Source: a virus
Taxonomy: Duplodnaviria; Caudoviricetes
Strand: one strand, 5' to 3'
Length of the DNA stretch: 64,000 nucleotides
IMG/VR virus record: IMGVR_UViG_3300002026_000008
Location: 24,828 to 88,827 of that record
The notes below the pieces were generated by a model, which was not told the origin of the DNA, did not search any database, and saw nothing but the letters and a program-made list of their open reading frames with translations. The translations under genes and the position numbers were made by a program. Below, in pieces: positions 20,035 through 54,440 of this stretch (positions are counted from its first letter, which is position 1; each line of letters opens with the position of its first letter).

Positions 20035-20051
20035 TGTGCTAAACTCTCCTG

Positions 20052-21783: not shown

Positions 21784-21784
21784 A

Positions 21785-22522
21785 TCAGTCTCCGTCGTTT
21801 AAAGAATTAATAAAAGTCCCATCTAAATGCTTAGGCTTATTTTTAAGATACATTGTTGCATATTTTTTGTTTTCTGAATTTAAGCGCCATCGCAATGTTG
21901 TATATTTCACACCTATTGCTATTGCCGCTAACAGTATATCACTATATTCTACATTATCAATAATAGTAATAAGTGAATTAACAGGTTTTTGTAAAATAAA
22001 CGTTTGCTTTAAAGTTAAACTCATCTGTTTTCGTGACTTATCAGAATGTTTTTTACCATAAAATGCATTCTTTTCACCTATTCTCGTTTTTGCATATTGG
22101 CTTATTTTATATCTATGCTCATTTGAAAGTTTTCTACCCTTCTGTGGACCATAACCAGTTTCATCTTTAATCTTTTTACAAGCAGCTACCATAGCATCAA
22201 TAACGTGTTTAGGTCTTGGTTTTTTATAATTACCATTAATAATTCCGTACATTGCTCCACCAACTGCATTATTTTTAAGATTATATGACATTAAATTATT
22301 AACTGCATCTAATTGCATTAATATTTTTTCTTCCTCAGCTCTGTAATTATTACCGATATACATTATTTCTCTAACAAAATTATCAATTCCATATTTGTTA
22401 ATTGCATATCTAAACATCTTGCCAGAACCGATATACCCGTCATCAATATTACCGCTATGAGAACCGATATACCAACAACCAGTCACGGTATTTGTCCATT
22501 TATACACAAAACCGACGTCCAT
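21785..22522 (-). CDS. Free-standing GIY-YIG homing endonuclease with NUMOD3 motifs
   Basis: Probable start MDVGFVYKWTNTVTGCWYIGSH; Y.GSG; NAFYGKKHSDKSRKQMS. Confidence 0.9.
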   Translation of the reverse strand: MDVGFVYKWTNTVTGCWYIGSHSGNIDDGYIGSGKMFRYAINKYGIDNFVREIMYIGNNYRAEEEKILMQLDAVNNLMSYNLKNNAVGGAMYGIINGNYKKPRPKHVIDAMVAACKKIKDETGYGPQKGRKLSNEHRYKISQYAKTRIGEKNAFYGKKHSDKSRKQMSLTLKQTFILQKPVNSLITIIDNVEYSDILLAAIAIGVKYTTLRWRLNSENKKYATMYLKNKPKHLDGTFINSLNDGD

Positions 22523-22574
22523 AAGTTTCTCCAATAAACGATTATTGAAGTATTTATAGGACGTCCTTTTAATA

Positions 22575-23471: not shown

Positions 23472-23710
23472 TTTAGTTGACTCCAAATACTCTTAATGTG
23501 AAAAAATCTACCTAACGGTGATATTGCAATAGGTAAAGCTAAAACAACGCAATAAATCATTTGAAGACCCAGTAATATACTTGCATCGTTCTTAATGAAA
23601 AATACCTGAACAAAACCAGCAATTAAATAAACTAATGACACCCAAAACATCCAACAAGGGGCTGTTCTAGCAAACAGGGGTATGGTTTTTCCAAAAAGTT
23701 TAATTTTCAT
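23468..23710 (-). CDS. Small membrane protein
   Basis: Two hydrophobic segments. Confidence 0.55.
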   Translation of the reverse strand: MKIKLFGKTIPLFARTAPCWMFWVSLVYLIAGFVQVFFIKNDASILLGLQMIYCVVLALPIAISPLGRFFHIKSIWSQLK

Positions 23711-39170: not shown

Positions 39171-39620
39171 CGAGTGAGCGTCAGCGAACGAGTTTCATAA
39201 AAGATCGATGAGATAGCTTCTTATCTCATCGTGTTTCTGGATCAGACCCAAATTAGTCATTAGTATAGAGCTGTCAACTTGCTGCAAGCAGCAGGCGCTA
39301 TCGATTTGCTCGTTCGCTGACGCTCACTCGACAAATCAGATAACGCCGAGAAAGTAATTGATGAATTTTGTATATTTGGAATGTACGTTTGAATTCTTCA
39401 CGTCACAAAGCCTCTACTGACCGTCCCGTTATGCTTTAACGTTTGATTACTTGTAGAGCGCAAATTCACGCTGCCGTCCAGGTGGCTGTTTACCGGCTTT
39501 TATCTACAACGGCGATCTATCAATTTAAATACATCTTAAATTGAAAGCCGACGGCTATATCTCTTCATTAACAGTAATCAACGTGTAAATGAAGGAGTGA
39601 GAAATGTCTTTCTCATTCTG
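39171..39620. other. Structured non-coding element (ncRNA or origin-like)
   Basis: 22-bp perfect inverted repeat 39171-39192/39309-39330 enclosing further hairpins, followed by at least four more stems; no ORF over 60 aa. Confidence 0.6.
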
Positions 39621-39981: not shown

Positions 39982-40329
39982 TTATTCAATAGGCACGTTA
40001 AAGTGTGGATGTGTTCCATTGAATCCACACTCTCTAAAAAACTGAATATAATTTTCCAGTAAGTGTTTTTGATCGGGCTTATCTTTAATAACTGCTCGAA
40101 GATCAATAATAAACATTGATGCCGCACGATATGCTTTTGCACCATCTAATTTATCATCGGTTGATTGCATAATAATCCCTGCATCATCTAATCGTTGCTG
40201 ACAATAGTAGTATGCTCCTTTTGCAATATCACCTTTCATCCATTCATCATGCGCCATACTGCAATTGAGGGATAACAACTCGAGAATCTTATTAACTTGT
40301 TCTCGTAAAGGCTGTAAATTATATTCCAT
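39982..40329 (-). CDS. Hypothetical protein
   Basis: Probable start MEYNLQ at 40329. Confidence 0.55.
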   Translation of the reverse strand: MEYNLQPLREQVNKILELLSLNCSMAHDEWMKGDIAKGAYYYCQQRLDDAGIIMQSTDDKLDGAKAYRAASMFIIDLRAVIKDKPDQKHLLENYIQFFRECGFNGTHPHFNVPIE

Positions 40330-41209
40330 TATTGTCCAATTCATTGATATGATTGATAATTTCAGTTGCAGTAAATGTTCTTTTAGGTTTTCCCAACTTA
40401 TCAAGCTGTTTCTTCACCTCGGTAATATTAAACAATTCTTTACGAATTTTTTCTAATTCAGCAGTATTGTTATAAGATCGAGTTGGAAATCTGGTTTCAA
40501 ACGCAGAAGCATAAATCATATTTTCTGCCATGTATTTAAGAATAAAAAGGAAACCGAATTCACCATTACTAGAATCATAGCATTTACCATACCACGTAAG
40601 CTCATGATATTTTGCTAAAATATCACTCATTCTTTTAATGTTAAGCATAAAAACCGATTGATCATGGTATCCTTCACCTTCAACATTAAATTCTATACCA
40701 TAACATTTGCAATTTTCATCTAAAATAACACCTAAATATGGGTTAATTTCTTTTGCTACCGGTAACACCATAGCTACAGGATCATACTGAGTTAATTCTT
40801 TAATGATTCCGTCATTATGGAATACAGCATCACCCCATGTAACAATAACGTTTTTATTAGATTTTGATTCTGACAATGACCGTCTTTTCAAACTGTCTAA
40901 TGATTCCATTACGGCATGACCAGAACCTAACCCTGTTGTAATGGGGTGAATAACGATTTTATCGAGATTCTCTGCAATACTAATTGCTTGATCATCTGGA
41001 TATTGATCAAACATTCTAGCAAGCGCATTTGCAAAAAGATCTTCATGTTTTTGATTAATTGTTATGATAATACGATCAAAATGATGACCTATTGTCATCA
41101 CTGTATTGAAAATGTTTGGAACACCATTGACCTCCGCCAATGGTTTGATTGTTCCATTTTCATCCGTGAAACGGCTGCCATTACCTGCTGCAACGATTAT
41201 TAAGTCCAT
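40319..41209 (-). CDS. GT-A nucleotidyltransferase (NTP_transferase; GlmU-N/LicC-like)
   Basis: AAGGAG then MDLIIVAAGNGSRF...KPLAEVNG; GLGSGHAV; VTWGD. Confidence 0.88.
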   Translation of the reverse strand: MDLIIVAAGNGSRFTDENGTIKPLAEVNGVPNIFNTVMTIGHHFDRIIITINQKHEDLFANALARMFDQYPDDQAISIAENLDKIVIHPITTGLGSGHAVMESLDSLKRRSLSESKSNKNVIVTWGDAVFHNDGIIKELTQYDPVAMVLPVAKEINPYLGVILDENCKCYGIEFNVEGEGYHDQSVFMLNIKRMSDILAKYHELTWYGKCYDSSNGEFGFLFILKYMAENMIYASAFETRFPTRSYNNTAELEKIRKELFNITEVKKQLDKLGKPKRTFTATEIINHINELDNNGI

Positions 41210-41219
41210 TGCAAACTCC

Positions 41220-43082
41220 TTAAAAAGTAATACTTGCAATAGCTAAACCATTAATTGTCGTTTCCAACAATGTCGCCAAGTAAATCAGTGTATCCCGTGG
41301 ATTATTTACAGGTAAAAACTTCAAACGATTATCAAATTTTTCTGCAATTTCCATAATGCATTTATCATTACCTTCAAATCCTTCATCACCGATATAAATG
41401 ACTTTGACAGGCAGTGTAGCAGAAATATTATTGAAATCTGAATCACAGTAATTTAAATGCTTATTTACGGCAAAAGTTTTATTACCGAATTTGCTGATTT
41501 CAATGGTTGTTTTACCGGCTGGCATAATCATTCCATCAAAACCATTTTCAACACACATAATTTGAAGTAGTTGAGTAATAGCTTCACGATATTCAGGAAT
41601 AATCGGTTTAATAGCAATGGAAGCATTAGCCTTATTTGTGACCTTAGACATATCTATTCCACAGTCTGCGATAATAGTCTTGACCAATTCAACTTCTTCA
41701 TTACTAAGCAATTGATCGTCTGCAACACTACCCTTCTTTACAAATCGCAATGATGGTTCGTAATTATCAGATAGTTTACGTGATGCAACATATTCATTTA
41801 GACCGCAGTCTGCATACACCGTTAGATTGTCAGCAAAGGGTTCAATTGAACGAATACTATTTCCGGTGATAATAGTCAAAAATGATCTAAACTTTAAACT
41901 TGCGCGAACAAGTAAACGCTTATTCATTTCTGATTCTTTTGCATATGTGTTGTTGCGACCTACTATAGTGTCATCATAATCTAACATTAGACCGTGAATG
42001 TTGTCAATATACTCTGAGAAATAATCTTTCATAATTGTAGAAATTAGAGATACACCGCGATGTGAACGCTCACGCTTTTCTGACAATTCAACGTTTATGT
42101 ATTTTTCAAATGTGACATCTCTTTCAATTTCACACATTAATGTAGCAGCATTGGTGTTAAATATTGTGGTGATTGACTGCATAGGTAACCAGCGATTGAG
42201 AAGATTCTGAATATCACTTGCACTATATCCAACGGTATCAAGATCATTCTCATTATTCATAATTAGATACTTAGATGCTTTTGATAACCTTAGTGCATCT
42301 TTAACACCTAGCATCATATATGTTGGAATAAGTGATGTCCACTGTGTACCTGCCGAAAAGATAACAACCTCGGCTCCCATAATTGCATTATGAGTGTCTG
42401 CATTTATTCCAGGTGGAGTAATCTTTTTACCGTGTGGGTCTGTAAAATACAGATCGGTTATGCGATCATCTCGATTATCCCATTCATCAATATCAACCTC
42501 ATCTGATAACACTACACCGGATGATGTCACTGCATTGATATATGCTGGCGTATCAGAAGCAATCAAAACGGAATCTTCAGAAATACCAAGATGCTTAGCC
42601 ATAATCTTGCCAGCAGCACTCAACGAATTACCATTAAGCCCGGCGATACCAGCATAAATCAGATTTGATATTGAGAAATCATCATAAGTGATAACACGTG
42701 ACATTGGTTGCGCAAAGAAATTCTCTGCTGCATCTTCAAATAATTTTACAGTACCAGGAGCAATTTCATCCTTATAATTATCTAAAAACTCAGCAAATAC
42801 TTTTTCAGCTTGATGATTATCTGCATCAAAACGGACATTCAGGAAATCATAAAGTTTTGTACTTTTTGGGTTAGTAAATTTGTGCTTAAGCATCTGATTT
42901 TTTCTCAAATCAGACGGCCCTAGCAATTGACCTTGATAGATTTGACGACACTGTCCTGTGCTTAGACCATTGTCCATAGCACAGATAACAACAGTAGTAT
43001 CTACTGTATCACCATATACTGCATTAATACCATTTTGGAGATTAACACTACCACGACCACCTGCAAAGATTACTAGTTTCAT
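41220..43082 (-). CDS. YvcK/GlmR/CofD-family domain fused to HAD-IIB (phosphomannomutase/phosphatase-like) domain
   Basis: N: KLVIFAGGRGS, DNGLSTG, GPSDLRK, IFSAGTQWTSLIP. C: LDYDDT (DxD), ITGNS, IYIGDEGFEGND. Confidence 0.8.
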   Translation of the reverse strand: MKLVIFAGGRGSVNLQNGINAVYGDTVDTTVVICAMDNGLSTGQCRQIYQGQLLGPSDLRKNQMLKHKFTNPKSTKLYDFLNVRFDADNHQAEKVFAEFLDNYKDEIAPGTVKLFEDAAENFFAQPMSRVITYDDFSISNLIYAGIAGLNGNSLSAAGKIMAKHLGISEDSVLIASDTPAYINAVTSSGVVLSDEVDIDEWDNRDDRITDLYFTDPHGKKITPPGINADTHNAIMGAEVVIFSAGTQWTSLIPTYMMLGVKDALRLSKASKYLIMNNENDLDTVGYSASDIQNLLNRWLPMQSITTIFNTNAATLMCEIERDVTFEKYINVELSEKRERSHRGVSLISTIMKDYFSEYIDNIHGLMLDYDDTIVGRNNTYAKESEMNKRLLVRASLKFRSFLTIITGNSIRSIEPFADNLTVYADCGLNEYVASRKLSDNYEPSLRFVKKGSVADDQLLSNEEVELVKTIIADCGIDMSKVTNKANASIAIKPIIPEYREAITQLLQIMCVENGFDGMIMPAGKTTIEISKFGNKTFAVNKHLNYCDSDFNNISATLPVKVIYIGDEGFEGNDKCIMEIAEKFDNRLKFLPVNNPRDTLIYLATLLETTINGLAIASITF

Positions 43083-43112
43083 TTGATTTCCTTTGTGAAT
43101 AACGGGGTAATG

Positions 43113-44264
43113 TTATTTATGGTCAGCAGAAAGTGTGATTACCGACACTATCGTTTCTACCAACATTTCGCAGTACATTTGTTTATCCCAGTCCAAAACA
43201 TTATAGCTACTATCGACAATTTCTTTACGTGCAACATTGTCATCTCTAACTGCACGAATACGATCAGCAACCTCTTGTCTGTTATTCACATAGAGAAAAT
43301 CTGCGAGTTCTTTATCCTTGCCATACATGCGCAATTTTGGATCCAATTCACTATCGATAAATGTCACACATCCGGCTAGAATAGATTCGTAACTACGTTG
43401 TGACATAATATCAAAAATGGGGTAATGCTCATCACCAATAACAACATGAGAAACCGCTTCTGCCATTTTATCAATCATTTTGTTATACGCTACTGCTGGA
43501 CTAAACACAGGAGGACGTAGTGAAGAAATCTTTTTAGGATTAAATTTTTCTTCTTCAATTTTACCAAACACTTCTACTTTGATATCTTCATCATGACCAA
43601 AATAGTAGTCAACCAATTTCTTTTCACGTTTACCACCACGCATAGTACCACCATATGAGAGGTCCCAAACAGGTTCGGTTAGTGCAAATGGTCTACGCTG
43701 CTTTAAAAGTGGAAAACGGTCAAATGGGTAATTGACAACTGTTCTTACCTTAACGGTATTTTTACCTTCATTCTGCACACTGAGAATTTTTGCAACATTG
43801 TAAGATTGACAGATCACATCAATATCAGTACGTGTGATATTGTACTTCGTGATATCCCACTTGGCACCCCAGTCTTTTCGTTCAACACTACCAGCAATCT
43901 GAGATAAACATAGAGCTGGATCACAGTACATGTAGATGACAGGACCAGGAAATGTTTGAATCATTTGGTAATTTAACATACCTACTGGGTCTTCTGCACC
44001 ACCGAAAAAGTTTTGATTACCATTAATGATAAGCAAAACATCGTTTACACTCATATTATCATGGTCATCTTCGATATTGTGAAATGTTAGGTATGCAGGT
44101 TGAACGTCCTTCTTTAAAACTTTTGTATAGACATGAACATCAGCACCACCTTGAGCTAATACATCACAAAGACTTCGTGCTTCACCTGCACCACCACTGG
44201 TGTCATTCGCATTGTATGCAATACGTGCACCAATTTTAATTACTGCAACTCTCAAGTTAGACAT
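43113..44264 (-). CDS. T4 DNA beta-glucosyltransferase-like glycosyltransferase
   Basis: Collinear with remembered T4 Bgt: LLIINGNQNFFGG vs LIVVNSSINFFGG; DLSYGGTMRGGKREKKL vs DVIYGGSFRSGQRESKM; LYVNNRQEVADRI vs FYVNNRAELIDRV. Confidence 0.88.
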   Translation of the reverse strand: MSNLRVAVIKIGARIAYNANDTSGGAGEARSLCDVLAQGGADVHVYTKVLKKDVQPAYLTFHNIEDDHDNMSVNDVLLIINGNQNFFGGAEDPVGMLNYQMIQTFPGPVIYMYCDPALCLSQIAGSVERKDWGAKWDITKYNITRTDIDVICQSYNVAKILSVQNEGKNTVKVRTVVNYPFDRFPLLKQRRPFALTEPVWDLSYGGTMRGGKREKKLVDYYFGHDEDIKVEVFGKIEEEKFNPKKISSLRPPVFSPAVAYNKMIDKMAEAVSHVVIGDEHYPIFDIMSQRSYESILAGCVTFIDSELDPKLRMYGKDKELADFLYVNNRQEVADRIRAVRDDNVARKEIVDSSYNVLDWDKQMYCEMLVETIVSVITLSADHK

Positions 44265-44341
44265 TGAAACTCCTAATCATTTCACTTTTTTCGAAAAAAG
44301 ATCGCCAAACTGCACCAAAGTGCCGGTATTACGGGATGATA

Positions 44342-44584
44342 TTAACTAGCTACACGATTTAAAACTTGATCTATATCTTTACCATCTGTTATTTCATTGA
44401 GTATGGCAACAATATCTTCTTGCCTTTTTTCAGCATCTATTCTAGTTTGTGATTTTGGAATTGATGCATCACCTTGTCTTAGACATACTTCTTGAATGAT
44501 GTAATGCGTAATTTCACTCGTCAACATCTTATATTCTTTGAGTAAAACTGCAACTTCAACTCCATACCCTCTTTTTGATCTCAT
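44342..44584 (-). CDS. Hypothetical protein
   Basis: 80 aa ORF. Confidence 0.45.
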   Translation of the reverse strand: MRSKRGYGVEVAVLLKEYKMLTSEITHYIIQEVCLRQGDASIPKSQTRIDAEKRQEDIVAILNEITDGKDIDQVLNRVAS

Positions 44585-44646
44585 AGCAACTCACTAATAG
44601 ATATAAATTGCATTATAACACAATTACACAGCAAAGTATATCATAT

Positions 44647-45519
44647 TTACAAAACATTTACATTGCTGAACCAACCGTTATATGAGGCTTCTGCTTTTTT
44701 AGCATCCTCAAGATTTTTAAACCAAAACTTCCATGGTGTTGACGTTCTTGAAAAGACAGTTTCTATCTTATCATCATCTAACAGCAATAGATATAAACTG
44801 TTTGTCTTAACTGAGTTTGTGAATAGCATTGGTCCAATAATAGATAGCAATCTTGCTGCATCTTCTCTATTTGCTGGTACTTTTAGACTCAGTTCATAAA
44901 TGAATTTATTTTTTGATGTCGCTTTATTGACTTGCTGCGCTCTTGCTATCGCTAAATTACCATCAGGAACATCAGCATTAATTGCAGAGCCAGCAGCTGT
45001 CATTGCATTTTCACCAATTACAACTGGCGCAATAAGCATAGTACCTGATCCGATAAATGCACCATCTTTAATGGTTGTTAGATTTTTATTTTTACCATCA
45101 TAGTTGCAAGTAACGGTCCCACATCCAAAATTGACATTTTTGCCGATATTTGCATCACCTATATAGGTTAGATGCTTTGCGTGGGTACCATCACCGATAT
45201 AACTTTTCTTTATTTCAACAAAATTACCTATTACTACATTGTCACCAATTGTGACATCATCCCTGGTGCGTCCATACGGTCCAATTACACAATGATCACC
45301 AATTTTGGTATTAGATAGATACGAAAATGGTAGAATTTCTGTGTTATCACCAATTAGAACATTTTCGATTACACAGTACGGACCGATAGTGACATTATCA
45401 CCAAAATGATTATCTTCACCTTTAATGATACATCCTATTCCAACACTGAGATTTTTACCTGTGGTGTAACTACCCTGAATATGGAATTTCACAGGTCTAG
45501 CAAAAATATCAACGTTCAT
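44647..45519 (-). CDS. Stand-alone GlmU C-terminal (LbH acetyltransferase) domain plus ~90 aa unknown extension
   Basis: Hexapeptide repeats; GNFVEIKK, KHLTYIGDA, GCGTVTCNYDGKNK, FIGSGTMLIAPV, AAGS, LAIARAQQ; no N-terminal uridylyltransferase domain. Confidence 0.9.
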   Translation of the reverse strand: MNVDIFARPVKFHIQGSYTTGKNLSVGIGCIIKGEDNHFGDNVTIGPYCVIENVLIGDNTEILPFSYLSNTKIGDHCVIGPYGRTRDDVTIGDNVVIGNFVEIKKSYIGDGTHAKHLTYIGDANIGKNVNFGCGTVTCNYDGKNKNLTTIKDGAFIGSGTMLIAPVVIGENAMTAAGSAINADVPDGNLAIARAQQVNKATSKNKFIYELSLKVPANREDAARLLSIIGPMLFTNSVKTNSLYLLLLDDDKIETVFSRTSTPWKFWFKNLEDAKKAEASYNGWFSNVNVL

Positions 45520-45704
45520 TTTCTTTCCTTTAATACAGACACTTTTACGTCACGTGTTATCTCAAAATCCGCTTTATCTTTAAAAAGCCAGACCGTAAAA
45601 TCGCCAGGTTTGTATTGTTGTGTATTCGTGATTACTGGAATTTTGTAATCTTCACTGAGTTTCTTCAACTCTTGATACAACTCTTCACTTATTTCAGCTG
45701 TCAT
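45516..45704 (-). CDS. Small hypothetical protein
   Basis: 62 aa; IPVITNTQ. Confidence 0.45.
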   Translation of the reverse strand: MTAEISEELYQELKKLSEDYKIPVITNTQQYKPGDFTVWLFKDKADFEITRDVKVSVLKERK

Positions 45705-45706
45705 AA

Positions 45707-46117
45707 TTATTTCACAAATTCAACATGGTGCTTAATACCATCTTTATTGAACCAGAAAATATCATAACTGTCTAGTGATGACGGATAGCCTTCATACGTG
45801 ACATCATAACCACAGATTTGTGCAATTTGATCTAGCACATCTGTGTTTCCACAGGCAAGTATAATCGTTTCTTCAGAAAGAGTTTTTGATATTTCATCAT
45901 ATACCTCTGAAGACTTCCTATTGTATCCACTTGATTGCGCTTCACTGATAGCTCGTAGCAGTAATGTAAATGCTAGGGCTTCTTCTGCAATTGAAATGTC
46001 AAATTCTTCTTTCGCCCATGCATCAGCATCACCACTCATTTGTGATACAACAAACCTAAAAGTATTTGTTGGATTTTTTTCTTCAGGAACAGGATCACAT
46101 ACCACTAGTAAAGACAT
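45707..46117 (-). CDS. Hypothetical protein
   Basis: 136 aa ORF. Confidence 0.55.
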   Translation of the reverse strand: MSLLVVCDPVPEEKNPTNTFRFVVSQMSGDADAWAKEEFDISIAEEALAFTLLLRAISEAQSSGYNRKSSEVYDEISKTLSEETIILACGNTDVLDQIAQICGYDVTYEGYPSSLDSYDIFWFNKDGIKHHVEFVK

Positions 46118-46128
46118 ATCTCTCTCCG

Positions 46129-47085
46129 TTAAAAGTCAAGCAGATTTTTCTTTTCAGACACAACTTTGTCGCCAGTGCGAAGATCAACATAATACTTAGC
46201 GAACTTTTCCTTGAACTTTTCGCGAAGCTTAGGTTTGATTTCATCAGGACGTTTTGCTACAATGGTATAGCACATTGAGATCATTGGGTTGACAAGAGCC
46301 ATAACAGCAGAAGCAAAGCCAGAAGATACTGAGCGCATTTCTTCATAAAACGCCATTTGTGTATCATCAAATCGTGGCTTGAGGTACCGTGCTTTACCCA
46401 ACCAGCCTTTAATATCGATAGGCGCAAAACCTGCATCATCGAGTTCTTTCATCATTTCATAATGAGCAAACTCATAGACATGGCTACCTTCCCAGATGAA
46501 TTCTTCACCTTCGTGCTTCTTCGGGTTTGGAGAAGATACAACGATTGTTCCACCAGGAGCAAGACATTTTTGAGCATCAGCAAGAAGTTGCTGAACAACC
46601 GGAATACCTACGTGCTCAAGAACTTCTTGCATAATGATCAAATCAAATTCTTGATTGAGTTCGGTAATCGGCCGCCTCATTGCATCCCAATGGTGAACAG
46701 TACACTTACTAACACCTTTTTGAACAGCATAAAGCTCTTGTGCTTCCTTGACAATGTTTTCTTGTACTTCAAGACCAACATAATCAACACGTGGACGACC
46801 AGGATTTGCAAAGCTTGTCATCCAGAACGTATAAAAGGTTGCACGACTGCAACCTACATCCAAAATACGAACTGGCTTTTCAATATCAGTGCGCAAATCT
46901 GTAACAACCTGTGCAACTACTGCATAACGAAGAAGAGCAGCAAGGTCCCAACCGCTAAACCAACTGAACTTGCCTAGTGCTTCTTTTGTGAACAAATTCA
47001 GAGAACTGTCATCGTGAGTGAAAGTGTAATCGTCTGCATCAATTTGTTCTTGGCAGGCATGTACTCGTTGGGTATTATCAGTCAT
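46129..47085 (-). CDS. Class I SAM-dependent methyltransferase (small-molecule/sugar type)
   Basis: RILDVGC, YVGLEV, FDLIIMQEVLEHV, LAPGGTIVVSSPN, HVYEF; no NPPY/DPPY or PCQ DNA-MTase motif. Confidence 0.88.
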   Translation of the reverse strand: MTDNTQRVHACQEQIDADDYTFTHDDSSLNLFTKEALGKFSWFSGWDLAALLRYAVVAQVVTDLRTDIEKPVRILDVGCSRATFYTFWMTSFANPGRPRVDYVGLEVQENIVKEAQELYAVQKGVSKCTVHHWDAMRRPITELNQEFDLIIMQEVLEHVGIPVVQQLLADAQKCLAPGGTIVVSSPNPKKHEGEEFIWEGSHVYEFAHYEMMKELDDAGFAPIDIKGWLGKARYLKPRFDDTQMAFYEEMRSVSSGFASAVMALVNPMISMCYTIVAKRPDEIKPKLREKFKEKFAKYYVDLRTGDKVVSEKKNLLDF

Positions 47086-47291
47086 CTCGGTTCCTTTATA
47101 GTGAATGCTTCGTCAAGTGCAGCTTTTATTTCGGTGAATGTATCTAATGTGTAATCTGCGAGTATGCTAATACCATACTCAGTATTAATACGGGCTTTAA
47201 AATCATCTGCTTTACGTAATCCTTCTTCTATACCTGCACGATACAATGCACGTAAATATTCATCTTGAGTTACTTCGATTTGCTCAGACAT
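47082..47291 (-). CDS. Small hypothetical protein
   Basis: 69 aa coupled ORF. Confidence 0.5.
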   Translation of the reverse strand: MSEQIEVTQDEYLRALYRAGIEEGLRKADDFKARINTEYGISILADYTLDTFTEIKAALDEAFTIKEPR

Positions 47292-47830
47292 TATGATGTT
47301 GCCTCTTCATAGATACGGTCATAATGCTTGTAGCAATTATTCACCTGATCATATACATCAATAATTCTTTTATCAGGAAATGCAGATCGTGCATAGGCTT
47401 CAATAAATCGATCTTGTTCTTCTTCTTTTCGATTAAAATCAAAACTTAATCCATCATCCTTCAAAATACTGAAATTAGAGGTTGTCAATAGAATCAATCT
47501 AGTATCTGACATTTCTCTTGCAGAATATTCACACTCTAATTCGAAAATATACTCACCTGAATAGTCCCGATAAAGTGGTGCGTAGACAAATTCGCCCAAA
47601 TGAAAACGGTTAAAGATAGTACGTGCACTAGAGTTAAGAATATCAAACCCAGTACCAAATGAACTACGTTGATATTCATAAAGAGAACCATCATATTGAG
47701 CTAATGGTATCGGTTTTGAATAATGAACTACTTGATAGAAGCCATTATAGTTTTGAATATTGCTAATAAGGGAATCTTTTCCAAGTCTATCTATCCCTTC
47801 AAAAATCCAATGTTTAATTTCTTGCGTCAT
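47291..47830 (-). CDS. dNMP (thymidylate-like) kinase
   Basis: WIFEGIDRLGKDSLI P-loop; FNRFHLGEFVYAPLYR. Confidence 0.85.
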   Translation of the reverse strand: MTQEIKHWIFEGIDRLGKDSLISNIQNYNGFYQVVHYSKPIPLAQYDGSLYEYQRSSFGTGFDILNSSARTIFNRFHLGEFVYAPLYRDYSGEYIFELECEYSAREMSDTRLILLTTSNFSILKDDGLSFDFNRKEEEQDRFIEAYARSAFPDKRIIDVYDQVNNCYKHYDRIYEEATS

Positions 47831-47862
47831 TCGAGTATAGCTTTCTAATAGTTGATAGATAG

Positions 47863-47892
47863 ATTATAACACGTTTTCAACTGAATGTAAAC
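47863..47892 (-). promoter_or_regulatory. Early promoter driving the kinase-MTase-GlmU-like block
   Basis: GTTTACA-17 nt-TATAAT. Confidence 0.75.
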
Positions 47893-47894
47893 AG

Positions 47895-48377
47895 TTAAAT
47901 TGAGTAATATTTGATTGGCTCCAATACACTACCAAACCCGCGATTTGCAACCATATAAGGGTAAAAAATCTCTTTCACTCTATCACAGTACCAGAAAATA
48001 AAGAAATCTGCAGGTTTCGTTGGATAACAGGTATTACGAATATGTCTATCAAATGCTAATCTTGCTTGCTCAATTGACGGTTCTTTTAATACCTTTACCT
48101 CAATTGTTCCTTCAAGTTTGATATCATCAACAATGCGGCATCCCGTCAAGTCGTGAAACATATCATTATGCTGAATTAGTCTGGTGAAATGTTTAGTTAA
48201 GATTTCACCCACCTTACCAAATAGATAATCTTCAGCTTTTTTCTGTGGTGATCTTGCCGGTAATTCTGGGTCATCCGCGTAAAATTTACCAGTGGCTATA
48301 AACTCATCTATCTTTATAATTTCATCAGGATAAAGTGTTTCAATTGCTTGTAGTGTTAGTGCCTGTAATTTCAACAT
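47895..48377 (-). CDS. Putative PD-(D/E)xK nuclease
   Basis: GKVGE...HDL...IEVK...ADFFIF pattern. Confidence 0.45.
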   Translation of the reverse strand: MLKLQALTLQAIETLYPDEIIKIDEFIATGKFYADDPELPARSPQKKAEDYLFGKVGEILTKHFTRLIQHNDMFHDLTGCRIVDDIKLEGTIEVKVLKEPSIEQARLAFDRHIRNTCYPTKPADFFIFWYCDRVKEIFYPYMVANRGFGSVLEPIKYYSI

Positions 48378-48386
48378 AATGTCCCT

Positions 48387-50090
48387 TTACATATTCTGAA
48401 AATTGATACTGAATTCATTCTTCCAAATATTCTCAGTTGACATAAACAACCTTTTTGCATTTGTGTCGAGAATATAAGTAACGGCATGATCTGATTTACT
48501 TCTAACTGCTCTACCTGCACCCTGCACGAGTTTGTGAATCGTAATCAAGCTGAAGATATCAGGGTACTTATCCAAAATTCGTTTAATACGCTTATCACCT
48601 AATGATGGAAATGGTGCTTTCACCATAATATTCCAACGTGCTTGGTCATCTTTAAGATCGATACCTTCATAAATGCTAGGTGAAATAAGAACAGATGGAA
48701 CTGTAGTCTGTTTAAATTTCTCTAATATTTCTACTAATTTCTCGCCACGCTTATGCTCATAAACTTTCAAAGACTTGACCGTTTTTCTTAAACTTTCAGC
48801 AATCTGTTCAACTAATGCAAAACTTGGTGCAAGAATAATACCATTTTCTGTATTGTGTTTATTAGCAATTGACTTCACATTCTCCAATAATTTCTTTGTT
48901 GTAGCTGGGTCCTTCATTGTTGCTGCACTGAGATGAATAGGATTAAAGAAGATGACCTTCTTATTCTCAGGAGCAAATACCGGTGCTAATTTGATAAATT
49001 TGACTTTCGATTTATCAAGATCGAGAGTCTTTATCAAATATGCATCATCAACTGTTGCACTCATAAACAGATTGAAGTTACTATTACGCAACTTATCAAA
49101 CATATCAAATGCAAAAATAGGTTTAATAGTCAAATCCTTTTGCTCAGTGTTGTAATCAACAATATGGTCGTAACCATAGATAATGAAGTCGTCGATCTTA
49201 CAACCTAAACCCTTATACTTTCTAGCGAGACCTACCATTTTGCGATATTGACCAATAGAGCGCATTTTCAAAGCATATGCCGCTTCGTGCTCAAATGCTG
49301 TGCCAATATCCTCATAAGCTGTAAGCAATTCCTGCAGATATGTACTGTATGTCCGCTCATTAAGTTTACCATTCTTGAGATGTTCACTGACCTTCTTAAA
49401 AAGATGGAAGTGAGCAGCATTACCCATACGTAAAGAATCTGCAACTTCGGTGGCATATGATAGCATCTTCTTTTCAGACATATGAATTGCGCAATGATCT
49501 ACGAATAGATCATTTAATGTGTGGGCTTCATCATAAACTGATAAAAGTCTAGGCTCAAAATGTTGACTATAAAGACGTTCTACGAAATGGTAAGAATAAT
49601 TGGTGATAACGTGCTTAGTGCTATTCATCGCATTGCGCGATTTTTTGAATACACACCTGTGACACTTGCTCATTAAATCAGATAACTCAGGATTATCTTT
49701 CAGTGCTTGAAAGGCACAAGCTTCCGCTGTTGCTTCAAACACTTCACACTCGTAGTTGTTAGCACCTTTTAGAAGCAGAATATCTGGATGACCATCAAAG
49801 GTGTCCCAATATTGATGCACCAAAGCATTAGTACCCATAAAAATCTGAGAGGTATTAGAAGGTATTGGTCTAATATTAGGAAGATAACTACCAACTAATT
49901 CACGTAATGCCTCAGCTACCACGGCTGCAATAATTGACTTACCTGATCCTGTAGGTGCGCACAAAATAGTGTCTCTTATCTCATCTACGATAAATGCTTG
50001 CAATATTTCATCTATTGAGTCTGGTTGATTATCACGCGGCTTGAACTTTAATCTATCATACGCCGCAAGAATTTCTTTTTCAAACACCAT
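48387..50090 (-). CDS. DinG/Rad3-family SF2 helicase
   Basis: CAPTGSGKS, VYDEAH, LFMSAT, EGIDLK, KAPFPSL, QGAGRAVRS, YILD; four Cys in the Fe-S region. Confidence 0.9.
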   Translation of the reverse strand: MVFEKEILAAYDRLKFKPRDNQPDSIDEILQAFIVDEIRDTILCAPTGSGKSIIAAVVAEALRELVGSYLPNIRPIPSNTSQIFMGTNALVHQYWDTFDGHPDILLLKGANNYECEVFEATAEACAFQALKDNPELSDLMSKCHRCVFKKSRNAMNSTKHVITNYSYHFVERLYSQHFEPRLLSVYDEAHTLNDLFVDHCAIHMSEKKMLSYATEVADSLRMGNAAHFHLFKKVSEHLKNGKLNERTYSTYLQELLTAYEDIGTAFEHEAAYALKMRSIGQYRKMVGLARKYKGLGCKIDDFIIYGYDHIVDYNTEQKDLTIKPIFAFDMFDKLRNSNFNLFMSATVDDAYLIKTLDLDKSKVKFIKLAPVFAPENKKVIFFNPIHLSAATMKDPATTKKLLENVKSIANKHNTENGIILAPSFALVEQIAESLRKTVKSLKVYEHKRGEKLVEILEKFKQTTVPSVLISPSIYEGIDLKDDQARWNIMVKAPFPSLGDKRIKRILDKYPDIFSLITIHKLVQGAGRAVRSKSDHAVTYILDTNAKRLFMSTENIWKNEFSINFQNM

Positions 50091-50142
50091 TGTGAGCCTT
50101 TTTCATAAATATTGTTATTAACATCTTTTGATACTGAAGACT

Positions 50143-50559
50143 ATGAAATCATATGGCAATTTAGAATTAGCTGAAGGTTCAGATATCGTCAATATGACGG
50201 TTGCAACTGGTACAACATTACCGGCTACAACTGCTAATATCGCTGAACTATTCTATAAAACGGGAACTGCAGCTGGACTTTATGTCTATAACGGAAGTTC
50301 TTGGACTAATTTATCATTAGCCGCTTCAGGTGGCAATACTTTGAGTTATGCTTATCAACAAAGCACTGCCTCTACTACATGGAATATTAACCATAATTTA
50401 AACACTACAAATATTACGTATAGCTTTATGGTTTATGTAAGCAGCACGTTAACACCAATTATGCCATCAGCTTTAAGCATAATTGATGCTAACAATATCA
50501 CGGTAACCTTTTCTGTTGCTTATACTGGAACTGCTACCATTGTTGGATCACTTGCATAA
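50143..50559 (+). CDS. Small virion/tail-fibre-associated protein on opposite strand
   Basis: LFYKT..GLYVYNGSSW and WNINHNLNT module shared with 58767..61793; ATAAATA at 50105-50111. Confidence 0.65.
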   Translation: MKSYGNLELAEGSDIVNMTVATGTTLPATTANIAELFYKTGTAAGLYVYNGSSWTNLSLAASGGNTLSYAYQQSTASTTWNINHNLNTTNITYSFMVYVSSTLTPIMPSALSIIDANNITVTFSVAYTGTATIVGSLA

Positions 50560-51462
50560 CCGTTCTCTTGGTGCACAACCGAAACAGACATCAATAAGAT
50601 TCTTCCAATAATTTGGAAGACGATAATACTGAAGTGGTTGTCTAATGTCAGCTGGCGAACAATTGTAATCTTCTCGCCATACTTTCTCATACGCTATTAA
50701 CTGTTGACGAATAATATCGTTATAAACCATTTCTTGCATAATGATCTCATTTGCCATCGGGTCTTCATGGATGCATTTTTTAGCCATGTCATAATGTGTA
50801 TCATACAAGTGCATTGAATGTGATTCATGGATGTATTCACCGAGAGTTAGATCACTAAACAATTCAATCTGCTTAAGTTCACATAACATCATTTCTTGAA
50901 GCATTGTGAATTGAAAAACATCATTGCAAAAACCTAGGATGATATCATTCGATCTCATTGTAACGATCAATACCAACTTGCTTTCACGAATAAACCACTG
51001 AAGATTCAAAGTACATGGTACATCTTTAGTTGATCGCGTATAGTCATATGGTAAATTGATATGCATCATTGCTTGACGGGTATCTCTATCTGCAACTAAT
51101 GCTCGCTTTACTTTTTCCCATTGATTATATGGAATAAGTGTGGCTGGGGCATAACCTAGCAACCGATAACCGTAATTTGAATTAACAGAACCATCATCAG
51201 CGGCAATTTGTTTCCAAAACGGTGCATACCTGGCAATTGTTGCAGACTGAGGATCACCCGACATATACCAAAACAATTCTGCTAATAGATACCGAAACTT
51301 CAAATCACGACTAGGCAATGTGACAATACGATCTCTCGGATTGCTGATACGAAGTTGATACCCTAACAGTTCCTTACATTTTAATCCACGTGGTGAGATA
51401 TCATATCCCATTTCCATAATCTGGTCCACACACTCCACGAATTCGATATTTAATTCTGACAT
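50548..51462 (-). CDS. Thymidylate-synthase-family dCMP hydroxymethylase/hydroxylase
   Basis: SNYGYR, DTRQA, KDVPCT, MRSNDIILGFCND: Asp at the specificity position, as in T4 gp42 (GFRND), not the Asn of ThyA. Confidence 0.85.
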   Translation of the reverse strand: MSELNIEFVECVDQIMEMGYDISPRGLKCKELLGYQLRISNPRDRIVTLPSRDLKFRYLLAELFWYMSGDPQSATIARYAPFWKQIAADDGSVNSNYGYRLLGYAPATLIPYNQWEKVKRALVADRDTRQAMMHINLPYDYTRSTKDVPCTLNLQWFIRESKLVLIVTMRSNDIILGFCNDVFQFTMLQEMMLCELKQIELFSDLTLGEYIHESHSMHLYDTHYDMAKKCIHEDPMANEIIMQEMVYNDIIRQQLIAYEKVWREDYNCSPADIRQPLQYYRLPNYWKNLIDVCFGCAPRERLCK

Positions 51463-51471
51463 TTTATTCCT

Positions 51472-51954
51472 TTATTGTTTGAGATCGTCGATACGGTGGT
51501 CTGACATACCATATCGGTAAATGATAGTTGAAAACTTGTCTATCATTTGTTGTGTCACTTCAACCATTTGGGTTTCAGCAATATAGGTAGTCGGATTGAT
51601 GATTGTTTGTTCAACAGTTTGACCTAACTTACCAGCAATGCTAGCTAATATTTCTCTATTATGAAATAATGTAACATATGGATGTAGATAATCACTGAGG
51701 GTGGTATCAATGAATGATTTATCAGTACCAATATCTGCTAAATTGATTTTTCTGCAGACAGCCGTAACGGTCATTTCATCAGTGATAGCTTCAGGATTTT
51801 CAAAATCCTTAAGAAGCTTGCCATTTTTTGCTATGGCAACTGGATATTTTAAACTATCACCTAATCGCAATCGTGGATTATCCTTAAGAATTTTCTGTGT
51901 GATAATATCGTGAAGTTCAATATCACTCAATTTTATTGCATCTTCTGGTTTCAT
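51472..51954 (-). CDS. Hypothetical protein
   Basis: 160 aa ORF. Confidence 0.55.
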   Translation of the reverse strand: MKPEDAIKLSDIELHDIITQKILKDNPRLRLGDSLKYPVAIAKNGKLLKDFENPEAITDEMTVTAVCRKINLADIGTDKSFIDTTLSDYLHPYVTLFHNREILASIAGKLGQTVEQTIINPTTYIAETQMVEVTQQMIDKFSTIIYRYGMSDHRIDDLKQ

Positions 51955-51955
51955 A

Positions 51956-52426
51956 TTATTCCTTTAGCGATCGTAATGGTTTTTGCCATGCAACCTTAAC
52001 ACATTCAACTTTAAGGTTTTTATCATGGTTAATTGTTGTGATATTGGGCACACAATCATCTAAAAGAACACATACTTCATCTTTAAACGTAGCATCACAA
52101 AATTCTATAAATGCTCGTTTTTTGCCCCATACTGATATAAATTCACGTACATCGAATTGTGCACATAAATGTAGCAATACGATTCTGCGAATTTCTTCCA
52201 CTGTCCAAACTCTTGTTACTTTGATCTTGAATGCACGCTCGATCATTTCTTTCATCGTGGTATTGAAATAATCTCTATCTGCTTCATTCCAACAGGCAAA
52301 TGAAAAGATTTCGATTTCTGTGACGTTATGCTCAGTGATCCAGCCAGATACCCTACTCACATTAGTGAGAATGGCATCGTGCCAGTTTGTGATCAATGTT
52401 TCCTCTAAATCGCAAAAAACTCTCAT
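51956..52426 (-). CDS. HAD-like phosphatase (tentative)
   Basis: VFCDLEETL motif I-like and LLDD motif IV-like. Confidence 0.55.
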   Translation of the reverse strand: MRVFCDLEETLITNWHDAILTNVSRVSGWITEHNVTEIEIFSFACWNEADRDYFNTTMKEMIERAFKIKVTRVWTVEEIRRIVLLHLCAQFDVREFISVWGKKRAFIEFCDATFKDEVCVLLDDCVPNITTINHDKNLKVECVKVAWQKPLRSLKE

Positions 52427-52455: not shown

Positions 52456-52485
52456 ATTATATCATAAGCGAAACGAGTTGTAAAC
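52456..52485 (-). promoter_or_regulatory. Early promoter upstream of HAD/dCMP-modifying block
   Basis: GTTTACA-17 nt-TATAAT. Confidence 0.75.
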
Positions 52486-52499: not shown

Positions 52500-54440
52500 T
52501 TATACTTTGAAAATGCTCACGGTTTCTTTAAGCTTCACTGATAATGATTGCAAAGTGTTTGCGCCATTGTACACCTCATTAACACCGGCACTATTTTCTT
52601 CATTCAAATTTGCGAGCATTTCAACACTTGCGGCTATCTGTTCACTAGAAGAACTCTGTTCTTTAAGAGCATTTGAAATTTCACTAATAGTGTCAATCAC
52701 TTTAACTGTTTCACCGTATATTTTCTGCATGCTTTCGCCTGCAATACTTGCATGTGATACACAATTATTAACTTGACTGGCACTATCCTTGATACCAACA
52801 ACGGCAGCTGCCGTTGATTTTTGAATTGCTTCGATCATAACTGCAATTTCTTGAGTTGATATAGCTGTTCTTTCAGCTAATTTGCGTACCTCATCAGCCA
52901 CAACTGCAAATCCACGTCCTTGATCTCCAGCTCTAGCAGCCTCAATTGCAGCATTTAGTGCTAATAGCTTTGTCTGACCTGCGATATCCTTAATCACGTT
53001 GACTATTTCAGAAATCTGTTTCGAGCTATTAGCTAATTCTTCAATCATATCAGCAGCTTTATTTACTGCAATTGAACTAGTTTTCAATTCGGTAACCGTG
53101 TTATTGACCGCTTCCGTGCATTCTAACGACATTTGTCCCGTCCGTTCTGCTAATGTGCTAGAGTCTTGAGCATTATCGGTTACCTGTTTAATGCTTACCG
53201 TTATTTCTTCTAAGGTTGCGGCAATAGATGATGTAGAATCATTTTGTTGTTCAACACTGACAGATACTCGTTTAGCAGTATCAACTAATCCTATAGAAGA
53301 CGTTTCCAAGGTGTCAGCACTTTCATTTATGTTTTTGACTATTGTGCGTAGTCCTTCTTGCATACTACTTAATGCACATATAACACTACCATCTTTAGCA
53401 CCATCTAAATTAACAGGTGTACGTAAATCACCATTAGCAATAACTGTTGCTATGTCAACAGCTTTTTTAGGTTCGCCACCAAGAGGAACCAAAACAAGCC
53501 TGTTAAGCATAACTATCACAAGACTTATGAGTAAAAAGCAAGCAGTAATACCAGTAATTACTATCAGCATTATTCTACCACGCATCATATTATTTGCTTC
53601 TTCTTTGGAATATGCAGCATGAACAGTAAAGCCCCAGGCGGCAAACTCTTTTTCGGATACTTTCCAATTCTCAGCATCTTTTAAATGTGCAGCAATAGCT
53701 TCTTCATTTATGTGTGAAGAATGAAATCGTATTTTTCCTTTATTGTCTGTAATAGAAATAAATCCTTGTGTCAACACTTTGCTGTTATCAACAATAGATT
53801 TCAAATTATCAACATTAACCTTATATCCAACATGCCAAATACCGATGGTATTATTAGCTGCATTTTTAATTGGGGTGTATCCTGTTAAAAATGGGTTACC
53901 GAGAATATCAACCATACCGAAATATTGTTGGTCGCTATTAATAGCAGCATATGCTTTGCCAGTCTTATCCAATACTGTACCAACTGCGCGTGTTCCATCA
54001 TCTTTCATCACATTTGTGGATATTCTAACATAATCATCACCCTGCTTTGTGAAAACGGTAGATGTGCCACCAAGAAGATTTTTGATATTATCAACAAGTT
54101 TGAAATTATTTGCGATAGCAATTGAACCTAATACTAGATCGTTGACAGATTTATCACCAACCTTAACTTCAGGACCCGTAACTGCTTCTCCTAATTGTTC
54201 ACCCTGATTTATTAACACCTTCATGGATGACTGTGTTTGATCCATTATCAACTTATCTGTCACTTCCAACATATTAACTATTTTCGTTAACTGTTTCTCT
54301 TGCTCTATGTTTAGCTCATTTTTAATCCGAGTATTCTCAAATAATGTGAATGCTATTGATCCGCTTAGAATAAACACAGTAATGAACAGTGATATGGATG
54401 TTATAAATCTAAATTTTAAACTCTTGTTATTAAAAAACAT
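52500..54440 (-). CDS. Methyl-accepting chemotaxis protein (TM-Cache-TM-HAMP-MA)
   Basis: Two TM helices; Cache_3/Cache_2-like sensor ([36 protein letters not shown]); [34 protein letters not shown]. Confidence 0.96.

Follow-up and report, generated by a model that had tools for sequence, protein, structure and literature searches.

We describe here a gene cluster of a tailed phage (Duplodnaviria; Caudoviricetes) which, as we hold with moderate confidence, directs a T4-style replacement and glycosylation of cytosine in the phage DNA and provides its own sugar nucleotide, likely that of N-acetylglucosamine (GlcNAc). The cluster is a run of co-oriented genes of about 12 kb on the minus strand (positions 40319–52426) of the window, i.e., of the whole stretch of 64,000 nucleotides analyzed, which corresponds to bases 24828–88827 of an 88.8-kb IMG/VR viral contig (IMGVR_UViG_3300002026_000008). 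Since the completeness of this contig was rated at 25% by CheckV, the source is probably a jumbo phage with a genome of about 350 kb. The parts of the reading differ in strength: it is quite probable that 5-hydroxymethylcytosine (5hmC) is glycosylated from a nucleoside diphosphate (NDP)-sugar made by the phage, while the chances that the sugar in this phage is GlcNAc are about even. A putative new cytosine hypermodification pathway had been proposed for this region in an earlier note. All the genes named there are indeed open reading frames (ORFs) of the minus strand within the cluster, the terminal HAD gene and the early promoters being the weaker items, and the combination of a thymidylate synthase (TS) homologue specific for deoxycytidylate (dCMP), a deoxynucleoside monophosphate (dNMP) kinase, a Bgt-type transferase and phage sugar-nucleotide enzymes supports its interpretation as a cytosine modification cluster. 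The genes on which the argument relies, together with the ordinary ThyA gene of the window, are as follows:

50548–51462, minus strand: TS homologue, predicted dCMP 5-hydroxymethylase producing 5-hydroxymethyl-dCMP (5hm-dCMP); Pfam PF00303 (Thymidylat_synt), E 2.8e-27
47291–47830, minus strand: dNMP kinase of the thymidylate kinase (TMPK) family, predicted 5hm-dCMP kinase; P-loop IEGLDRLGKS
44647–45519, minus strand: credible stand-alone glucosamine 1-phosphate (GlcN-1-P) N-acetyltransferase of the GlmU C-terminal type (LbH); TIGR01173, E 8.4e-71
43113–44264, minus strand: homologue of T4 beta-glucosyltransferase (Bgt; GT-B), predicted DNA hmC glycosyltransferase; Pfam PF09198
41220–43082, minus strand: fusion of a YvcK/GlmR-like domain (CofD superfamily; residues 1–350) and a HAD-IIB domain of phosphomannomutase (PMM) type (residues 356–620); PF01933, TIGR01826
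40319–41209, minus strand: sugar-1-phosphate nucleotidyltransferase, most like the GlmU N-terminal domain; PF12804; signature AAGNGSRF...KP
22575–23486, minus strand: ordinary ThyA, covering dTMP synthesis separately; PF00303, E 4e-95; ALPPCH, D169 and N177 canonical

The gene encoding the fusion was revealed in only two of 50,697 deposited phage genomes, the Ralstonia jumbo phage RsoM2USA (37% identity) and the 462-kb uncultured phage LR756500; a megablast search of the same number of phage records with the 12-kb cluster gave no DNA match. At least 165 fusion homologues were found in metagenomes, and an alignment-based search of IMG/VR revealed 37 fusion loci, many of them on contigs of 130–430 kb. 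A scan of IMG/VR with the single fusion protein had given no match, and the alignment was needed to find these loci. The distribution of other genes was determined within 10 kb of the fusion in loci with 31 distinct fusion sequences, and this set underlies all counts of loci given below:

nucleotidyltransferase: 30 of 31 distinct loci
Bgt: 28 of 31
TMPK-like kinase: 20 of 31
hmC-type TS: 19 of 31
XPD-like helicase: 13 of 31
guanylate-kinase-like: 12 of 31
MazG-like: 9 of 31
dCMP deaminase: 6 of 31
methyltransferase: 6 of 31
dUTPase-like: 5 of 31
GlmU-C acetyltransferase: 2 of 31

Because the core genes (26–71% identity) recur jointly in 31 distinct phage loci whose flanks are otherwise unrelated, their grouping is not a matter of chance. 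The conserved gene string is Bgt–(methyltransferase)–fusion–nucleotidyltransferase; in most loci the nucleotidyltransferase starts no more than about 10 nt from the fusion stop codon, and Bgt usually lies directly upstream. The conserved module thus comprises TS, kinase, Bgt, fusion and nucleotidyltransferase, with the acetyltransferase being lineage-specific and the methyltransferase occasional. The nucleotidyltransferase (ORF486) of RsoM2USA adjoins its fusion (ORF1) across the ends of the record; in the paper on this phage, ORF2 and ORF10 are annotated as glucosyltransferase and thymidylate synthase, respectively, and no DNA-modification data are reported.

It should be mentioned that in RsoM2USA the place of the window's acetyltransferase and methyltransferase genes, between Bgt and kinase, is occupied by Hsp20, TPR and amidinotransferase/DDAH-like genes (L002 3079–5956, ORF3–5). 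No sugar-tailoring genes were found between Bgt and fusion in the other loci, only genes for Hsp20, TPR, amidinotransferase-like, Dam, Methyltransf_24 and unknown proteins. In a 345-kb complete phage (L006, the same phage as L007), a polysaccharide-type set of GT2, GT1, Methyltransf_24, hexapeptide acyltransferase and sulfotransferase-like genes is located 5 kb downstream of the module (17094–21796).

The identity of the predicted base follows from the TS homologue. Its closest solved structures are the MilA CMP hydroxymethylase (E 2.3e-26) and the T4 dCMP hydroxymethylase gp42 (E 2.5e-17). The catalytic cysteine (equivalent to C146 of E. coli) is kept, KDVPCT being aligned with SDFMCT of T4 and IDVACT of MilA. 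Three further positions are diagnostic: (i) L143, at −3 from the catalytic Cys, is replaced by Asp (KDVPC), as in T4 gp42 and MilA; (ii) D169 is kept (MRSND); and (iii) N177 is replaced by Asp (GFCND, aligned with GFRND of T4), whereas the ThyA of the window has Asn. Such positions have been interpreted for TS homologues as follows: N177D confers specificity for cytosine, an acidic residue in place of L143 goes with non-methyl products, as it admits water and a hydroxymethyl instead of a methyl group results (PMC13326640, Lee et al.), and D169N is the mark of flavin-dependent 5-hydroxy-dCMP synthases (PMC13326640). In the same alignment, T4-like gp42 has the pattern of the window protein (D/D/D at 143/169/177), the window ThyA has L/D/N, and the RB69 gp48 control has E/N/D, as published, with the motif MRSQN. 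The hydroxymethylase pattern was found in all 18 other distinct TS homologues beside the module and in four further homologues encoded elsewhere in module-bearing genomes; the D169N signature is absent from the aligned window protein and from all module-linked homologues. From the pattern D143, D169 kept and D177 we therefore predict that the base is 5hmC and not 5-hydroxycytosine (5hoC). Of the two bases that the earlier note had left open, hydroxymethyl- and hydroxycytosine, only the first is thus retained. Protein P10VF_224, tried as a possible 5hoC control, was dropped, as the alignment shows it to be an ordinary ThyA. The separate ordinary ThyA of the window was correctly recognized in the earlier note.

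Two observations concern genes of this family. On a 133-kb phage contig (L054; G005:C1:120486-121124), an hmC-type TS homologue contains one in-frame TAG, pointing to a broken gene or stop-codon recoding. In the window, an ORF resembling NUMOD3 homing endonucleases (21785–22621) runs into the 3′-terminal part of the true ThyA gene.

The kinase would carry the modified nucleotide further. As a single sequence it gave a weak match to phrog_761 (E 2.4e-4), and its family profile matched thymidylate kinases with E values of 1e-4 to 5e-3. Genes for a dUTPase-family protein and a dCMP deaminase are located on the same contig upstream of the window (G000:C1:13693-14875), and their homologues were found inside the module in four other loci (L032, L033, L037 and L043). 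The dUTPase-like protein of the contig is a candidate dCTPase.

The Bgt homologue connects the base with the sugar. It scores 46.9 bits against the Pfam family T4-Gluco-transf (PF09198; cut-off 27) and matches phrog_7922 over residues 5–358 (E 9.5e-49) and the T4 enzyme structure 1bgt over residues 68–360 (E 1e-31). The catalytic base D100 of T4 Bgt and the residues R191, R195, R269 and E272 binding uridine diphosphate (UDP) correspond here to D115, R209, R213, R290 and E293. Across 28 distinct Bgt homologues, D115 and the three arginines do not vary, and E293 is kept in 27. The protein is therefore predicted to be a UDP-sugar-dependent Bgt-type enzyme with intact catalytic and UDP-binding residues; which sugar it uses is not readable from its sequence.

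The most unusual component is the 620-residue fusion. The earlier note had described it as YvcK/CofD fused to HAD; the fusion is real, and both of its halves can now be specified. The N-terminal part matches PF01933 (E 5.5e-23) and TIGR01826 (E 6e-20). An AlphaFold model of the whole protein (pLDDT 92.6, pTM 0.90) retrieved with Foldseek the YvcK structures 2hzb and 2ppv first, followed by the Lactococcus alpha-phosphoglucomutase 4bnd and PMMs; for the N-terminal half, the template-modelling (TM) scores normalized to the target YvcK chains were 0.75–0.80. The N-terminal domain matched YvcK structures with E values of 7.5e-25 to 1e-19, compared with 0.079 for the CofD structure 3c3d. When the fusion was aligned to 2ppv and 2hzb, the YvcK motifs GGTG, D-[DN]-G-x-S-[ST]-G-x-x-R, P-x-D-[IL]-R-N and G-x-x-x-x-[ST]-S-[LV]-I were all present, and they are invariant across 35 homologues. 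Judged from these profiles and the model, the domain is YvcK/GlmR-like and not CofD proper, the enzyme of coenzyme F420 synthesis; genes like cofC, cofE, cofG or cofH were not seen in library scans of the cluster and the related loci. The yvcJ–yvcK–whiA gene context is absent, too, the neighbours of the fusion being Bgt and the nucleotidyltransferase. YvcK/GlmR is reported to bind UDP-GlcNAc and to stimulate GlmS in B. subtilis (PMC7525490), and uridylyltransferase activity has been described for the proteins of Listeria, S. aureus and B. subtilis (PMC10128056).

For the C-terminal half, a search with the single sequence against the PDB gave no match, whereas a profile of the HAD domain matched over the full domain length P. 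falciparum HAD5/PMM (E 9.3e-17) and human PMM2 (E 3.5e-13), phosphatases scoring 8e-4 or worse. The HAD motifs DxDxT and GDxxxGND and the motif lysine are invariant (D368, D370, T372, K535, G565, D566, G571, N572 and D573). In PMM2, the cap residues R123 and R141 hold the second phosphate of the sugar bisphosphate. The equivalent of R141 is kept here, while that of R123 is Arg in the family and Lys in the window protein. Thus, this half is predicted, from profile and model, to be a sugar phosphomutase of the eukaryotic PMM type and not a generic phosphatase. It would act on sugar phosphates as a mutase or possibly as a 1,6-bisphosphate phosphatase.

The two functions of GlmU appear to be divided between separate polypeptides, the nucleotidyltransferase gene lying two genes away from the LbH gene. 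The nucleotidyltransferase ORF extends over 40319–41239, its true start being probably the ATG at 41209. Its match to NTP_transf_3 (PF12804) barely exceeds the cut-off (28.4 bits), but the family profile places GlmU first (E 1.9e-16), IspD and TarI next and GalU-type enzymes far behind (3e-5 or worse). Foldseek with the model (pLDDT 89) likewise gave GlmU at the top (TM 0.69), then UDP-glucose pyrophosphorylases and RmlA. The GlmU loop (G-x-G-T-R in GlmU, AAGNGSRF here), the K25 equivalent and the WGD motif (D105) are kept. The hexapeptide protein (290 residues) covers only model positions 251–447 of TIGR01173, with 239 bits against an equivalog cut-off of 367, and scores 172 bits against the acetyltransferase domain of E. 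coli GlmU. It retains equivalents of R333, K351, H363, Y366, N377, N386 and K392 of the E. coli enzyme, i.e., all of its GlcN-1-P-binding and catalytic residues, which makes it a credible GlcN-1-P N-acetyltransferase. The N-acetylated and possibly O-methylated sugar of the earlier note is therefore reasonable as to the acetylation.

The acetyltransferase gene was found only in the window and in locus L005. We searched five large module-bearing genomes (three complete ones, RsoM2USA and LR756500) for a relocated copy of GlmU-C; four had none, and one gave only a weak generic hexapeptide match. Since these other genomes lack it, GlmU-C is an addition in the lineage of the window and L005. The window protein has a C-terminal extension of 85 residues (44647–44905) that could not be assigned to any family and that is missing from the L005 orthologue (197 residues).

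A variant of the two-gene cassette of fusion and nucleotidyltransferase also exists in bacteria. In a Bacteroidales clade (Segatella, Alistipes), fusions of 638–642 residues (about 32% identity) again precede a nucleotidyltransferase homologue, which has the same motifs (28% identity), inside surface-polysaccharide loci (L049 1300–6642; L050 10001–13466). The neighbours of the Segatella cassette encode a flippase, a TagF-type glycerophosphotransferase (E 3.7e-64) and GT2 enzymes; in Alistipes the gene next after the cassette encodes a GT2 enzyme. No Gtp1-like dehydrogenase gene was found beside the bacterial cassette. As the same two genes sit beside glycosyltransferases in Bacteroidales polysaccharide loci, the cassette looks, by gene context, like an old donor-supply unit feeding whichever transferase comes next, which in phages is Bgt-like. 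It should be mentioned that one 352-kb phage genome of 99% completeness (L027; IMGVR_UViG_3300032007_000006) has the fusion and nucleotidyltransferase in reversed order and lacks Bgt homologues within 10 kb as well as, at E ≤ 1e-3, TS homologues genome-wide; its cassette may feed a different acceptor.

Taken together, the following pathway can be proposed. The TS homologue would convert dCMP to 5hm-dCMP, which the TMPK-like kinase would phosphorylate towards the triphosphate, while the dUTPase-family enzyme and the dCMP deaminase encoded elsewhere on the contig would hold dCTP low, and the polymerase would write 5hmC into the phage DNA. In parallel, the HAD domain of the fusion would convert a hexose or hexosamine 6-phosphate to the 1-phosphate, the stand-alone GlmU-C enzyme would, in this lineage, N-acetylate GlcN-1-P, and the GlmU-N-like nucleotidyltransferase would make the NDP-sugar, most likely UDP-GlcNAc. 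The YvcK/GlmR-like domain might add uridylyltransferase activity or pull host GlmS flux into the pathway. Finally, the Bgt homologue would transfer the sugar to the hydroxyl of 5hmC in duplex DNA, with (beta-)GlcNAc-5hmC as the predicted product, and the methyltransferase may methylate the sugar. Such a modification could shield the phage DNA from defences that target DNA, restriction among them, independently of the host UDP-sugar pool. GlcNAc on 5hmC has a precedent in TET-linked phage glycosyltransferases, both in vitro and in E. coli (PMC8256090).

Several points weigh against this reading. The chemistry of the pathway is inferred wholly from homology. T4 Bgt itself uses UDP-glucose, and, to our knowledge, PMM-type enzymes act on mannose and glucose rather than on hexosamine. 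The YvcK-like domain scores only 71.9 bits against the NCBIfam TIGR01826 cut-off of 196 and carries an insertion of about 70 residues. In the hidden Markov model (HMM) alignment of the nucleotidyltransferase, the uracil-reading Gln76 and the GlcNAc-binding E154 and N169 of GlmU are unmatched, so that both its nucleotide and its sugar specificity are uncertain. Four complete or near-complete module genomes lack GlmU-C, and the ancestral sugar may accordingly have been a plain hexose or glucosamine (GlcN); in the phage of the window, GlcNAc could depend partly on host enzymes. The substrate of the methyltransferase is not readable from its sequence, and O-methylation of the sugar is a guess.

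Among the alternatives, the best surviving one keeps 5hmC and the Bgt-type transfer and differs in the sugar, which would be glucose or another hexose; the mutase and nucleotidyltransferase would then be a phage copy of Pgm/GalU, and the acetyltransferase would serve, e.g., the hexosamine pool. Such a pathway would agree with the donor of T4 Bgt, all of whose UDP-binding residues are kept in the homologue, with the Lactococcus alpha-phosphoglucomutase as the closest structural match of the HAD domain, with the presence of UDP-glucose pyrophosphorylases among the top fold matches of the nucleotidyltransferase, and with the lack of the acetyltransferase in most module-bearing genomes. We nevertheless consider it unlikely, since the nucleotidyltransferase profile favours GlmU over GalU-type enzymes, the fused YvcK-like domain comes from a family tied to UDP-GlcNAc, and in this lineage the intact GlcN-1-P acetyltransferase gene was inserted directly upstream of Bgt, an odd site for an unrelated gene.

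Less probable still is a scheme resembling CofC/CofD or pneumococcal CDP-2-glycerol (Gtp2/Gtp3) chemistry, in which an NDP-activated phospho-alcohol or sugar phosphate would form a phosphodiester on 5hmC or on its sugar, giving a teichoic-acid-like decoration. As far as we know, the only firmly established chemistry of the CofD superfamily is the transfer of a phospho-alcohol from an NDP donor; moreover, the IspD and TarI cytidylyltransferases stand close behind GlmU in the nucleotidyltransferase profile, and the Segatella cassette is followed by the flippase and the strong TagF-type match. However, the fused domain resembles YvcK far more closely than it does CofD, a cap site of the PMM kind for a sugar bisphosphate is present in the HAD domain, the Alistipes cassette is followed by a GT2 and not by a TagF-like gene, and no F420 or alcohol-dehydrogenase genes were found. 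Phospho-lactyl transfer of the CofC/CofD kind, entertained as a candidate, was downgraded, the domain being YvcK-like and the HAD PMM-like. There is a slim chance that the YvcK/CofD-like domain is nonetheless a true phosphotransferase linking a sugar-1-phosphate or polyol phosphate by a phosphodiester to glycosylated 5hmC; a phosphate-bridged decoration of this kind would represent a hitherto undescribed class of DNA modification. In a milder version, it is possible that the fusion identifies YvcK/GlmR proteins as enzymes of NDP-sugar synthesis, settling their disputed function.

Two further alternatives appear very improbable. The TS homologue might make 5-hydroxy-dCMP, as in RB69 and DLP3, with the sugar ether-linked directly to C5; the layout of a cytosine-specific TS homologue by a kinase and a glycosyltransferase is indeed that of the 5hoC phages (PMC13326640), but the diagnostic D169N is absent (MRSND against RSQN in RB69), and the transferase is homologous to T4 Bgt, an hmC-specific enzyme absent from RB69 and DLP3. 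Equally remote is an action of the sugar genes off the DNA, in host envelope remodelling or protein glycosylation, the link to the nucleotide genes being coincidental: the polysaccharide loci of the bacterial homologues and the L027 genome would suit it, whereas in 28 of the 31 loci the cassette has as its neighbour a Bgt homologue whose active site is intact, and TS, kinase, dCMP deaminase or dUTPase genes usually adjoin. We therefore continue to favour glycosylation of 5hmC with a donor made by the phage. As 5hmC would be made as a nucleotide, the replacement of cytosine is probably complete.

The remaining genes and signals of the cluster are the following:

52456–52484, minus strand: sigma-70-like extended −10 promoter (TTTACA-17-TGnTATAAT) ahead of the cluster; 11/12 consensus match, in a 73-nt gap after the chemoreceptor gene
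51956–52426, minus strand: small, tentatively HAD-like protein, first gene after the strong promoter; N-terminal motifs DLEET and LLDDC
51472–51954, minus strand: 160-residue protein between the HAD-like gene and the TS homologue; no match in Pfam, NCBIfam or PHROGs
48387–50090, minus strand: XPD/DinG-like DNA helicase; Helicase_C_2, E 3.3e-20, and DEAD_2; phrog_2488, E 8.7e-90
47895–48377, minus strand: 160-residue protein; no match in Pfam, NCBIfam or PHROGs
47863–47891, minus strand: second sigma-70-like extended −10 promoter, ahead of the kinase gene; 11/12 consensus match, in the gap 47831–47894
46129–47085, minus strand: class I S-adenosylmethionine (SAM)-dependent methyltransferase, candidate sugar O-methylase; Methyltransf_31/12/23/25/11, E 3e-12 to 8e-9
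45707–46117, minus strand: 136-residue protein between methyltransferase and acetyltransferase; phrog_8562, E 4.5e-10; homologue in L005
44342–44584, minus strand: 80-residue protein upstream of the Bgt gene; phrog_4535, E 3e-6

The methyltransferase gave a weak UbiG-like match, its nearest Atlas clusters are viral class I methyltransferases, and a search of the PDB with the single sequence found no solved relative. Homologues are located between Bgt and fusion in L006–L008, L020 and L032. For the small HAD-like protein, none of the HMM libraries searched (Pfam, NCBIfam, PHROGs) gave a match, while its Atlas structure resembles GmhB, NIF and HAD phosphatases at lead level only (TM about 0.54); its homologues adjoin the TS gene in L005 and L010. 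The separate HAD gene noted earlier thus retains its DLEET motif and a structural likeness to small HAD phosphatases, and lacks HMM support. The XPD-like helicase lies between the TS and kinase genes in 13 of the 31 loci and is probably a syntenic neighbour outside the chemistry. As for the early promoters proposed previously, the two 11/12 sites lie in fitting intergenic gaps, but they are consensus matches only, and the total of promoter-like sites (64, against 58 ± 7 in shuffled sequence) is not above background.

Outside the cluster, the window encodes topoisomerase II subunits, tail-fibre-like proteins, a chemoreceptor and a Ro60 protein besides the true ThyA; neither tRNA genes nor, in an Rfam search, any matches were found in it. 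The first promoter of the cluster is immediately preceded by the full-length Cache-HAMP-MCP chemoreceptor gene (52500–54440), which is not commonly carried by phages. The largest gene-free stretch adjoining the cluster (39171–39620) has no Rfam match at the gathering score.

Hypermodifications of phage DNA decide which restriction, CRISPR and glycosylase defences are escaped, and they also supply enzymes for epigenetic sequencing. If the proposed pathway is correct, it would use a donor route encoded by the phage to make a natural hmC derivative that bears an amino sugar and possibly a methyl group on it. The widespread and previously unrecognized gene string would flag modified DNA in uncultured jumbo phages, with 31 distinct loci and many genomes of 340–460 kb. 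It would also provide genetic evidence on the long-debated YvcK/GlmR family, whose member here, in phages as well as in Bacteroidales polysaccharide loci, forms one protein with a sugar phosphomutase and is coupled in translation to a nucleotidyltransferase. A direct test is possible, as the Ralstonia phage RsoM2USA, which carries the core module, is in culture.

Comparison with known systems supports the statement of the earlier note that the gene set matches neither T4 nor the arabinosylating phages. A full-text literature search for phages with CofD, 2-phospho-L-lactate transferase or phosphomannomutase found no description of the module. The cluster resembles the T-even pathway of glucosyl-hmC (T4 gp42, gp1, gp56 and Bgt) in several respects: its cytosine-specific TS homologue bears the hydroxymethylase signature, it includes a dNMP kinase and a true homologue of Bgt with the catalytic and UDP-binding residues conserved, and the contig also encodes a dCMP deaminase and an enzyme of the dUTPase family. 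In T4, however, UDP-glucose comes from the host, while here a mutase fusion, nucleotidyltransferase, acetyltransferase and methyltransferase are added; the kinase is TMPK-like and not gp1-like, the TS homologue is nearer to MilA than to gp42, and the jumbo phage is unrelated to the Straboviridae. The arabinosyl-5hoC pathway of RB69, DLP3 and HY126 (PMC13326640) similarly has its own NDP-sugar route, consisting of a kinase, HAD phosphatase and pyrophosphorylase, beside the TS homologue, kinase and DNA glycosyltransferases. It differs in the base (5hoC, with D169N and flavin dependence), in the sugar (arabinose from arabinose 5-phosphate), in its non-Bgt glycosyltransferases and in having no YvcK-like domain, PMM-type mutase or GlmU parts (PMC13326640).

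The TET-associated glycosyltransferases, which place glucose or GlcNAc on 5hmC (PMC8256090), are alike in the predicted product class, GlcNAc-5hmC in phage DNA. In that system, a C5-methyltransferase and TET generate 5hmC on the DNA, at GpC sites, and the host supplies the donors (PMC8256090), whereas here 5hmC is predicted to be made as a nucleotide and the donor pathway to be phage-encoded. The CofC/CofD pair of F420 synthesis is similar in that a gene for a GT-A nucleotidyltransferase adjoins a CofD-superfamily gene; the present domain is YvcK-like and fused to a sugar phosphomutase, with no other F420 genes. Finally, each sugar gene of the cluster maps on the bacterial GlmS–GlmM–GlmU route with GlmR/YvcK, i.e., the YvcK/GlmR-like domain, the mutase, the acetyltransferase half of GlmU and the uridylyltransferase-like half. 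Unlike in bacteria, GlmU is split here in two genes, the mutase is of the HAD/PMM and not of the GlmM type, YvcK is fused to it and is without yvcJ and whiA as neighbours, and the pocket of the nucleotidyltransferase differs, by its alignment, from that of GlmU. Thus, the T4 logic, the parallel of a phage-encoded donor pathway in the arabinosyl-5hoC phages and GlcNAc-5hmC formed by TET-linked glycosyltransferases (PMC8256090) are already known, while the YvcK–PMM fusion with the GlmU-N-like nucleotidyltransferase as a donor cassette, its spread among jumbo phages, and the split GlmU and methyltransferase of this lineage are new.

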